Below are positions 17,101 to 48,162 of a DNA stretch of 64,000 nucleotides, in pieces. The number at the start of each line of letters is the position of its first letter. Position 1 is the first letter of the stretch. The position numbers and the translations under genes were made by a program. The DNA lies in contig CM022667.1 in NCBI GenBank assembly GCA_012295275.1, forward strand, positions 19,592,001 to 19,656,000, in the 5' to 3' direction. The DNA is from Chrysomallon squamiferum (Eukaryota; Animalia; Mollusca). Below the pieces are notes generated by a model that had not been told where the DNA came from, did no database searches, and worked only from the letters and a program-made list of their open reading frames with translations.

Positions 17101-20100
17101 CTAAAAAGGAGGGAGTATTACTGAGGGGGAAATCAAATTATTTTTTTTCCCTCCCATTAAAATGCTTTCGCTGACTGGTTAGCAAAGTTTGTTGTGTTCC
17201 TAGTCCATTTGGGTTCTCTTTGTTCACTTAGTTAAATGTGTAAAAAGTCACTTGAATGGTTATAATTAGAAACTCGTTAAATCTGATTTCAAAACATTTT
17301 TTTTTTTTTTTCTCCACCTTGACAAGAACAGAAAGAAAGATTACAGTTCGTTTTAGACAGTGTATTGGTTAAAGACCAGTTAAAAACCTCATTGCTGTAC
17401 ATCTGACTATGACTGGCTAAGTTTCTCTGTGTACAACAGTCAGGAAAATCATATACCAGAGATTTTTCTAAAACATACACAGGACTTGGCCTAGACCAAG
17501 AATCATTCACTGCAGTTCTGTTGTTTTCTGTTCTGATAACCTTTCACATTTTCTGGGCAATGTAAAATAACTGACAGCTTGGGGGTGATGTCACTGAGGA
17601 ACAGTTCGCAAATGTTGTGATTATTTTGAAAATTGTTATAGTTACATGTCCACGACAGGCATGTTTGGACTGTAGTGAGGTATCTGTAAATGACATTTTT
17701 GTTTTGATAATTAATGGTCCTGTCATTACACTCTTGTTCCTCTGTTTACACATTTCACAATTTGTGTTTATATTAAGTGTATCCAGATGCCCCCATGGCA
17801 CAAGGGTCACTCCCCCCTCCCCAAACAATGGGCTGTTGATGGAGAGAAAACATTTTATGGCTGTCAGTTGGATTAATTTAAAATGGTTACACAGAAGAGG
17901 ATCTGTTGCTTTCACAAGGGGGGGGGGTGCAAAAAGGGGAGGGCCTGATTTACTTTGTTGTTGCTGTTTAAGAAAGTGATTGTTCATTTGTAACTGAAAG
18001 ACAAAAAAAATTAGTATTTTAAAACAGTTGTCATCTTGAAACTGCTGTCAACAAACTAATCGTTAAAATCTGCTACAGTTCGCACAGCAGGTGAAATTTG
18101 AATTATTATTAAAATATTAAAATTCATTTCTCTTTGTGTCACTCTTTCTCTCTTTCTCTATTCCCTGTTATCCAAGTATGTGAAGTTACACATCCCCCTC
18201 TGTGTTCTGACTTCCTGCCTTTCTCTGTTTCTTTATTCTGCTTTGGTCTTTTTCTTCCTCTCTTCCTCTCTCTGACAACACTTGCAAACACAATTACACA
18301 CAGTAACTGAGGGATTCTGTGGATTAGAGATTTTCTCATTGATTGATAGAAAGCCTCACCCTTTGGCTGTGATCGCTTGTATTGACTGCTCTGCCCCTTG
18401 TAGCAGCAAATCCACTGTTCTTGTTCTCAGTGTTCCTGCAGATTTGATTTCAGTTGTACATTAAGACATTTTGTATTTTTTAAAACCATTTTGTATTGTA
18501 AATCTTAAAAAAAAGAAGTGATTTTTTTAAAAATGTTTTAGATTATATATCAGATCACAATGATTACTAAATATTTAAAAACAGAAAATTATATTAATTA
18601 CTGTACATTGCATACAAAACTATTGCATACTGTTCAATACATTATGTATATTACAGTGTTGTGTTTTATACAATACTAAAGTATCTGCTACTGGAAGATT
18701 TTAGTGGCTATGTCTTTTTACTGTGAGAATAATTTGCATTCATTTCCTTTGTGTTTGTTCACTGAAGCATGTCATACAAATTAAATTAACCAATCAGGTT
18801 AAAGTAGTTTTTAACAGGTCATTTGAGGCTGTTTTATTTTCTTTTATTGCCTTTTTTTTATTTTTTTTTATTTTTTTTTTTTATTTTTTTTAGGTTGGCA
18901 TCAAGAATTTGTTTACTGTGAATGAAAATATTCTCATTTATTTTATAATTTGTATTTTATTATTATGTTCCTGTTGCTATTGTTATTATTATTATTAAAC
19001 ATATTATAATCAGACTTACTAATCAAGCCCTTTTTTATTTAATTTTAAAATTAGCCTTTTTTTTTCTTTTTTTTTATTTTGTTACAACATCATGTGTTGG
19101 AAAATGATGCTTAATTCATAATTTAATCACACAAAAATCACAACTGACACCGAACCTGATTTTATTTATCACTTGAAAACATTTGTTTAAATTGGTAGAC
19201 TTTTTTTTCTGCTGTAATGTCAGATCCAGTTAAGTTTGTTGTGAATATTTGTATAAGTAATAACAAGTTAACTAATTACATTTCTATTTTAACATTAGGT
19301 TTTTTATTTAATAGATATTTACTGCTTTTTTTTATTATTTAGATTTAAATTTTTATTTTTTTATGTTTTAGTATTATTATTTTGTTAATGTAAATTTTTT
19401 ATTTTATTTTTTTTTTTTTTGGAGGGCTATTTTTTTTTTTTTTTTTTTTTTTAATTTTTTTTTTTTTTTTTAATTGTTTCCTTTTCATATAATAAAAAAT
19501 TTATTTGTAAAGTAGTGTATGTAATATATCAGGTGTATTGTTTATTACCTGGCTATATAATCTTCTGTATTACCACTTCACTGAGGGATATTTATTTTAT
19601 ACTTTGACAGATGTCAAGCAAATTACAGTGACCATTACAGTGACCAATGTGAATGATGAAGACCCGGTGTTTAAAAACGAGCCACACCCTTTTCTGGCTA
19701 CCGTCAGTGCCAACACGGCTGCCAACATCATCGTGTATGATGTTTTTGCAGAGGATCCTGATCCTGGATCTGACATCAGATATTCTTTAGAGTCAGGTGA
19801 GTTGACACTTTTATGTATAGAAATATTTTTTCTTATGCAGAAATTATTGTTTAAACAGGAAAGTTTACACAGTTTTATATAGAGATTACTGTTTACATCA
19901 GGTAAGTTTACACAGTTTTATATAGAGATTACTGTTTACATCAGGTAAGTTTACACAGTTTTATTTAGAAATTACTGTTTACACAGTTTTATATAGAAAT
20001 TACTGTTTACATCATGTAACGTTTACAGTTTTATATAGAAATTACTGTTTACATCAGGTAAGTTTACACAGTTTTATTTAGAAATTACTGTTTACATCAG

Positions 20101-48162: not shown

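Follow-up and report, generated by a model that had tools for sequence, protein, structure and literature searches.

The original paper on the Adh3 mirage of amphioxus is said to be that of Canestro and colleagues, in 2002. Mirages are tandem repeats that lie across exon-intron boundaries, on both sides, and are described in amphioxus for Adh3, the globin genes BflGb6 and BflGb9, troponin C and PGBD5; the parts of the papers that deal with them report normal splicing and length instability (PMC3087553, PMC3902484). Passages of the first of these sources give unit lengths of 10-160 bp, state that many but not all copies keep the AG/GT and that boundary copies escape homogenization, and call the origin of the repeats unclear (PMC3087553).

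A human case is the 37-bp VNTR in intron 7 of the F7 gene, the first unit of which spans the exon-intron junction. Part of the F7 study (Borensztajn et al. 2006, PMC1557585) shows experimentally that the pseudo-donors are silent and that the most upstream site is used, and also describes a partial shift when downstream sites are better than the first. Human internal tandem repeats that alter exon-intron structure, i.e. expanding minisatellites of ~30 bp at boundaries, are described in sections of De Grassi and Ciccarelli (2009, PMC2812944). In the Rogers model, as summarized in a passage of PMC3087553, introns are gained by tandem genomic duplication of sequence that bears splice signals.

A 64,000-nt stretch of gastropod DNA (the window) carries a cadherin gene with numerous arrays of this kind (Table 1). 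They likely represent an unusually dense example of a repeat type known in lancelets and humans, and are likely harmless. The pattern described in the first-pass annotation of the window is not new: such repeats are already named (mirages), and F7 serves as their experimental model in humans. Neither a mollusc mirage nor a genome-wide enrichment study was found in the open-licence PMC and bioRxiv literature. What is new at the cadherin locus is a controlled enrichment within one gene, together with an asymmetry between donors and acceptors.

The cadherin arrays resemble amphioxus mirages in their presence on donor and acceptor sides, in unit size (19-63 nt), in partial retention of AG/GT, in regular splicing (introns 1-8) and in a boundary copy left unhomogenized (8 of 10 arrays). 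They differ in that the host is a gastropod, in that about nine occur in one gene, in one further, possibly inverted case, and in acceptor arrays that adjoin the AG instead of reaching across into the exon. A unit that spans the boundary is found in the donor arrays of introns 2, 13 and 22 and in the decayed copies of intron 6, and the intron 28 array just enters the exon. The acceptor arrays of introns 2, 4, 10 and 34 reach the AG but hold no exon bases, and are thus mirages in the wide sense only.

As in F7, the first unit of the intron 2 donor array spans the junction, the downstream pseudo-donors show no use in the two RNA runs and the most upstream donor is used. However, F7 is a single locus with identical copies, whereas the intron 2 decoys are better than the functional donor. 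Unlike the repeats of De Grassi and Ciccarelli, where gene structure is altered among paralogs, the cadherin arrays are not accompanied by an evident structural change.

The host gene and its neighbours

All 35 introns of the modelled gene are GT..AG, and their numbering agrees with that used previously. The exons join in frame, apart from single-base breaks within exons 11 (29834-30033) and 17 (34132-34447) that are likely assembly errors. The order of domains is cadherin repeats, a DE-cadherin Ig-like/NC domain, EGF, two laminin G, EGF, a transmembrane segment and a cytoplasmic domain. Pfam searches with seven single exons recognized cadherin, DE-cadherin Ig-like, laminin G (twice), EGF (twice) and a cytoplasmic motif, and diagnostic short motifs match Lottia Lg-cadherin when compared by eye. 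Type III classical cadherins combine numerous cadherin repeats with an NC domain, an EGF-LamG-EGF-LamG-EGF series, a transmembrane segment and a catenin-binding tail; judged by its predicted domains and motifs, the host gene is of this type III-like kind. Searching for homologues of exon 9 brought up generic multi-cadherin proteins (28-45% identity), which do not place the gene.

A search of metagenome DNA with the cytoplasmic exon, covering 19 of 64 parts, gave at least two loci (66% identity). One of these loci, a distant cadherin whose intron position differs, was of no use.

The window is AT-rich, and within the cadherin gene the GC content is 47% in exons and 29% in introns; the median intron is 527 nt. 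Exon 2 begins with an in-frame 12-bp tandem duplication (19622-19646, ITVT twice), which is gapless in both RNA contigs.

The intron count of 35 is close to the 34 introns, mostly ancient, given for spider type III cadherins in part of PMC5473995. The cadherin arrays agree with the Rogers model in that the duplicated sequence carries splice signals, but the duplication signature is absent from the cadherin introns: comparison of intron ends with the opposite exons gave 0 of 35 introns, with a longest exact run of 5 nt and at most 10 of 20 identities. Intron gain is thus not indicated, and the earlier view that tandem duplication acts here on existing junctions is borne out by the missing signature and the similar intron count.

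The genes next to the cadherin have one intron or none, so that the window offers no second multi-intron gene to test. A TMEM70-family gene (53592-54340, minus strand) lies tail to tail with the cadherin. An intronless WDR70 gene (57032-58935, minus strand) is read in two frames that split near 58513-58537, likely an assembly error, and its lack of introns may mean a retroposed origin; among named relatives the best is from Haliotis asinina (76%) and most of the next ones are from other molluscs, which makes a gastropod the most likely source of the DNA, and one further protein shows 88%. Upstream of the cadherin there is a 150-bp duplication flanked by CA microsatellites (7075-7373) and an AT-rich 72-nt array (4938-5309). 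Outside the modelled genes, a 29-nt array (62943-63194, minus strand) ends ~8 nt before an acceptor-like YYACAG motif, and could be an acceptor array that precedes the final exon of a gene situated outside the window.

Minisatellite arrays at exon boundaries

Arrays were identified with TRF (period at least 10, score at least 100, microsatellites removed). The window contains 16, of which 14 lie within cadherin introns 2-34. Those in introns 5 and 33, the second array of intron 13 and the array just past donor 25 had been omitted from the first-pass annotation. The arrays occupy 7.9 of the 20.8 kb of introns 2-35.

Table 1. The cadherin gene and the repeats in its introns (window positions).
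Feature	Unit (nt)	Position	Strand	Description	Basis
Cadherin gene		13663..48163	+	Type III-like classical cadherin; 36 exons, ~2740 codons	Exon modelling, Pfam; RNA junctions (introns 1-8)
Intron 2, donor array	43	19793..20172	+	First donor used	TRF; both RNA runs
Intron 2, acceptor array	19	20362..20888	+	AT-rich; reaches AG; units without AG	TRF
Intron 4, acceptor array	29	22367..22560	+	Diverged final unit ends in acceptor	TRF, DNA contigs
Intron 5 array	43	23024..23306	+	Interior, unanchored	TRF
Intron 6, exon-end copies		23832-23856, 23993-24033	+	Two decayed copies of last ~24 nt of exon 6 plus donor	Probe match
Intron 8 array	63	25056..25819	+	Begins 136 nt past donor	TRF
Intron 10, acceptor array	29	28296..29833	+	~50 copies; ends exactly at AG, no exon bases	TRF
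Intron 13, donor array	56	31101..31503	+	Starts 8 nt inside exon 13	TRF
Intron 13, second array	26	31653..31938	+	Interior; possibly derived from first intron 13 array	TRF
Intron 19 array	46	35480..36527	-	19 reverse-complement copies of donor 9-mer	TRF, matching
Intron 22, donor array	23-25	38139..38511	+	Unit mostly last 22 nt of exon 22	TRF
Intron 25 array	29	39965..40207	+	Begins 13 nt past donor, donor not included	TRF
Intron 28, acceptor array	28	42645..43708	+	38 copies; extends 2 nt into exon 29	TRF
Intron 33 array	23	46149..46400	+	Interior, unanchored	TRF
Intron 34, acceptor array	23	46877..47544	+	Unit ends in YAG motif; diverged last unit is acceptor	TRF

When each array is placed uniformly within its own intron, far fewer array ends are expected near a junction than are seen. 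Ends within 5 nt of a junction are found for 5 of 14 arrays (0.61 expected), within 15 nt for 7 (1.62 expected, P=1.8e-4) and within 45 nt for 10 (4.19 expected). P is about 2e-4 at four thresholds (5, 15, 30 and 45 nt), with a Fisher-combined value of 1.8e-7. A looser definition of arrays gives 7 of 22 near a junction (1.73 expected, P=4e-4). This comparison of array ends with placement inside introns, which had been proposed as a genome-wide check, shows the predicted excess when run on the cadherin gene. A test that does not depend on TRF points the same way: 10 of 70 junction probes fit their own intron better than any other, where 2 are expected, although two of the ten, those of donors 7 and 10, match through T-rich sequence of low complexity and are discounted.

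It is very unlikely that chance and ascertainment account for this, i.e. that one striking gene has been picked from many in a repeat-rich genome with short introns. The window was indeed flagged for the pattern and holds no independent multi-intron gene, but the P values above stand against chance, as do the microsatellites of the same introns, which are not concentrated at junctions (1 of 16 near a junction, 1.56 expected, P=0.82), and the identity to their own junction of six arrays, which is far outside the null. Anchoring thus exceeds chance within one gene, a gene chosen because it shows the pattern. Arrays are also denser here: there are 14 for 12.8 kb of non-array sequence of introns 2-35, and 2 for the 31.8 kb counted in other parts of the window (p=1.7e-6); for the four interior arrays alone the excess is not clear (p=0.06).

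About ten arrays had been said to begin or end at a cadherin exon boundary. About nine firm cases are confirmed: donors 2, 13, 22 and the decayed 6, and acceptors 2, 4, 10, 28 and 34. The copies of intron 6 sit 270-470 nt into the intron and do not form a TRF array. The remaining two claimed cases fared less well, intron 8 being weak and intron 19 suggestive.

For the intron 8 array, derivation from the donor is not established. In addition to its distance from the donor, its score of 23 is below the 99th-percentile null of 27, and 5 of the 34 other donors fit the unit equally well. Donors 5 and 8 were rejected as firm junction copies, and so were donors 7 and 10 with their T-rich matches.

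For intron 19, an inverted match as good as that observed is found in 3 of 2568 random windows and in 36 of 2000 conditional shuffles. Its own donor reaches a score of 26 and a second donor comes close with 24, and the exon-specific part of the match has a p of about 0.02. The reverse complement of the donor 9-mer is found nowhere else in the window; the 9-mer is, however, simply the consensus donor. A fold-back origin from the end of exon 19 is suggestive only.

The units are mostly unrelated. Among 91 unit pairs compared, the top scores are 39 (the AT-rich units of introns 8 and 25) and 31 (the two intron 13 arrays), and the rest are 27 or less. A shared unit, as expected of a dispersed repeat or transposon family, is not found among these pairs, and the earlier statement that the units differ and do not form one dispersed family stands.

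Divergence of units with distance from the exon was claimed for several arrays. A weak trend is seen in 2 of 10, with uncorrected p values of 0.03 for intron 19 and 0.04 for intron 28, but in 8 of 10 arrays it is the junction-side tile that is more diverged, with an identity below the median of the rest; the tiles of introns 19 and 25 include non-array bases. An example is the intron 2 donor array, where the junction copy has diverged (0.74). In intron 10 the final unit agrees with the consensus at 95%. Part of this array (28860-29833) shows by eye an apparent higher-order repeat of ~530 nt, in which an order of variant units is seen twice.

Splice-site use and decoy sites

Four sequencing runs were compared with positions 19400-25900. 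The RNA data consist of assembled contigs from two runs (X6 and X9) of one study; such contigs drop rare isoforms, and site use was read for introns 1-8 from the joints listed. For introns 2-6, both RNA runs join the sites of the model; adjacent pieces lie across intron 7, and loose ends fit exon 1 and exon 9. Both runs use the first donor of intron 2 despite five perfect-consensus donors downstream (CAG|GTAAGT, at 19902, 19945, 20058, 20101 and 20144). No alternative joint was found among the RNA joints listed for introns 1-8. The exon-nearest splice site is used in introns 1-8, and in the contigs of these two runs the claim that decoys are ignored by splicing is upheld for these introns. Stray use of the intron 2 decoys followed by decay may be hidden, as each of the five would bring a premature stop. 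Further downstream, the RNA contigs measure 7427 and 7293 nt; they exceed the coding sequence that is left in the model by only 672 and 850 nt, and would therefore have no room for large array introns.

DNA contigs of two studies (X1 and X3) bridge the last intron 4 unit into exon 5. Contigs of run X3 show unit variants inside the arrays of introns 2 and 8; they are short-read contigs and give no array length. Exon 2 and its donor have little or no cover in the DNA runs, which are uninformative there. Contigs of other individuals differ from the window by ~1-3%, with gaps commoner in introns.

It is scarcely credible that the arrays, or their lengths, are assembly artefacts of error-prone long reads. 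The two frame breaks in the cadherin and the one in WDR70 do suggest imperfect polishing, but the bridging contigs and the X3 variants argue against an artefact, and the units carry structured variants.

The arrays were expected to contain dozens of decoy splice sites. This is so for acceptors, with 48 in-phase AG copies in intron 10, 26 in intron 28 and 22 in intron 34 (3 in intron 4), but GT-intact donor copies are fewer: 5 in intron 2, 9 in intron 22 and almost none in intron 13, where most copies have lost the GT. By a strength matrix built from the gene's own 35 sites, acceptor-strength sites are about six times denser inside arrays than outside (18.6 versus 2.9 per kb), and donor-strength sites are not enriched (1.8 versus 1.6 per kb).

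None of the 5 intron 2 donor decoys and none of the 99 in-phase acceptors of introns 4, 10, 28 and 34 is both in frame and stop-free. Stray use of decoys would thus mostly lead to a premature stop and, probably, to removal by nonsense-mediated decay. In intron 22, however, 3 of 9 decoys are in frame and stop-free, and decay cannot police these. They lie at +24, +75 and +99 nt (38161-38260). The +24 donor would add 8 residues repeating the exon end, and is a candidate for a productive alternative donor.

These sites, and the first unit of intron 19, which is predicted to pair with its own donor (z=-1.96), could be taken to mean that selection keeps the arrays as regulators of splicing, i.e. as decoys, as sponges for splicing factors or as an antisense mask on donor 19. 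The density of acceptor-strength sites would fit such a role, but this reading is highly unlikely. It does not account for the lack of donor enrichment, the loss of GT in intron 13, the intron 2 acceptor units without AG or the absence of alternative joints among those listed. The antisense role for intron 19 is not supported, since its own donor ranks only 5th of 35 by duplex energy and four other donors pair better with the unit.

Origin of the arrays

The anchored arrays are probably mirage-type minisatellites, i.e. local duplications that likely arise preferentially at exon edges, grow into the intron only, and are tolerated. Growth would likely proceed by slippage or unequal exchange, the exon acting as a wall that purifying selection maintains, and tolerance likely follows from use of the exon-nearest splice site. 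Internal units would be homogenized while the functional junction copy lags behind. One-sided growth into the intron, as suggested earlier, is what the anchored arrays display.

The donor-side copies include exon bases: ~4-11 nt in intron 2, 24 in intron 6, 8 in intron 13 and 22 in intron 22. This exon sequence indicates that the junction was the source for donors 2, 6, 13 and 22, and for these the proposal that junction sequence seeds the array is sustained. The five acceptor arrays give no such indication. Their exon content is 0-2 nt, they stop in phase with a YAG-like unit end, and they could equally be arrays that reached an acceptor and captured it.

Such capture may be extended to all arrays. 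Arrays would then arise anywhere, their edges would creep until stopped by the exon, and a splice-like motif would replace the old site by deletion, the junction not being the source. The phased stop of all five acceptor arrays within 0-2 nt of the AG, even in intron 10 with its well-matching last unit, agrees with this, as do the short introns and the large share of them that arrays fill. As a general explanation it appears unlikely, because it cannot yield the 8-24 nt of coding sequence in the copies of introns 6, 13 and 22, and because no accumulation at junctions is seen for the microsatellites of these introns. For the mirage-type origin preferred here, it is a part that may apply to the acceptor arrays, which may have come to the AG and taken it over.

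The reason why births would concentrate at junctions is the least supported step of the preferred origin. The favoured guess is that repair or recombination is misaligned at the border between a conserved exon and a polymorphic intron. The differences between individuals, with their intronic gaps, are compatible with this and are no test of it.

The breakpoints are asymmetric, with at most 2 exon nt in 5 of 5 acceptor arrays and at least 4 in 4 of 4 firm donors (Fisher p=0.008, post hoc). This could reflect a coupling to splicing, in which the ends of splicing intermediates, namely the AG end of the excised intron and the donor end of the 5' exon, hybridize to the gene again and act as template or primer for the first duplication. 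The acceptor units of 19-29 nt are also of about the length between branch point and AG. Such RNA templating is quite improbable: the asymmetry was noted post hoc in nine arrays, the donor copies run past the exon end into the intron, and the acceptor mirage of the amphioxus globin BflGb6 has a long exon head according to part of PMC3087553, which argues that the asymmetry is not general. Improbable too is the bolder proposal that splice junctions are mutagenic in this lineage, with splicing intermediates seeding tandem duplications; acceptor arrays that stop at the AG, donor arrays that carry exon sequence and a repeat of their own junction in about a quarter of introns would all follow from it.

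A junction-linked mechanism and selective tolerance on the intron side had been offered as alternative explanations. They are not equivalent. Selection only removes arrays, yet there is an excess at junctions, so that births or survival are raised there, and selection alone hardly explains the excess. Nine or so independent cases, with a control within the same gene, point to a raised rate of birth or survival at junctions and not to mere tolerance.

At present the cadherin gene stands as a dense example in one pre-selected gene. It makes two questions testable: whether exon edges bias the birth of minisatellites, and how, in an invertebrate, the spliceosome selects a single site out of up to 48 near-copies, or a weaker donor before five perfect ones. 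The donor/acceptor asymmetry, if true genome-wide, would link splicing to mutation.
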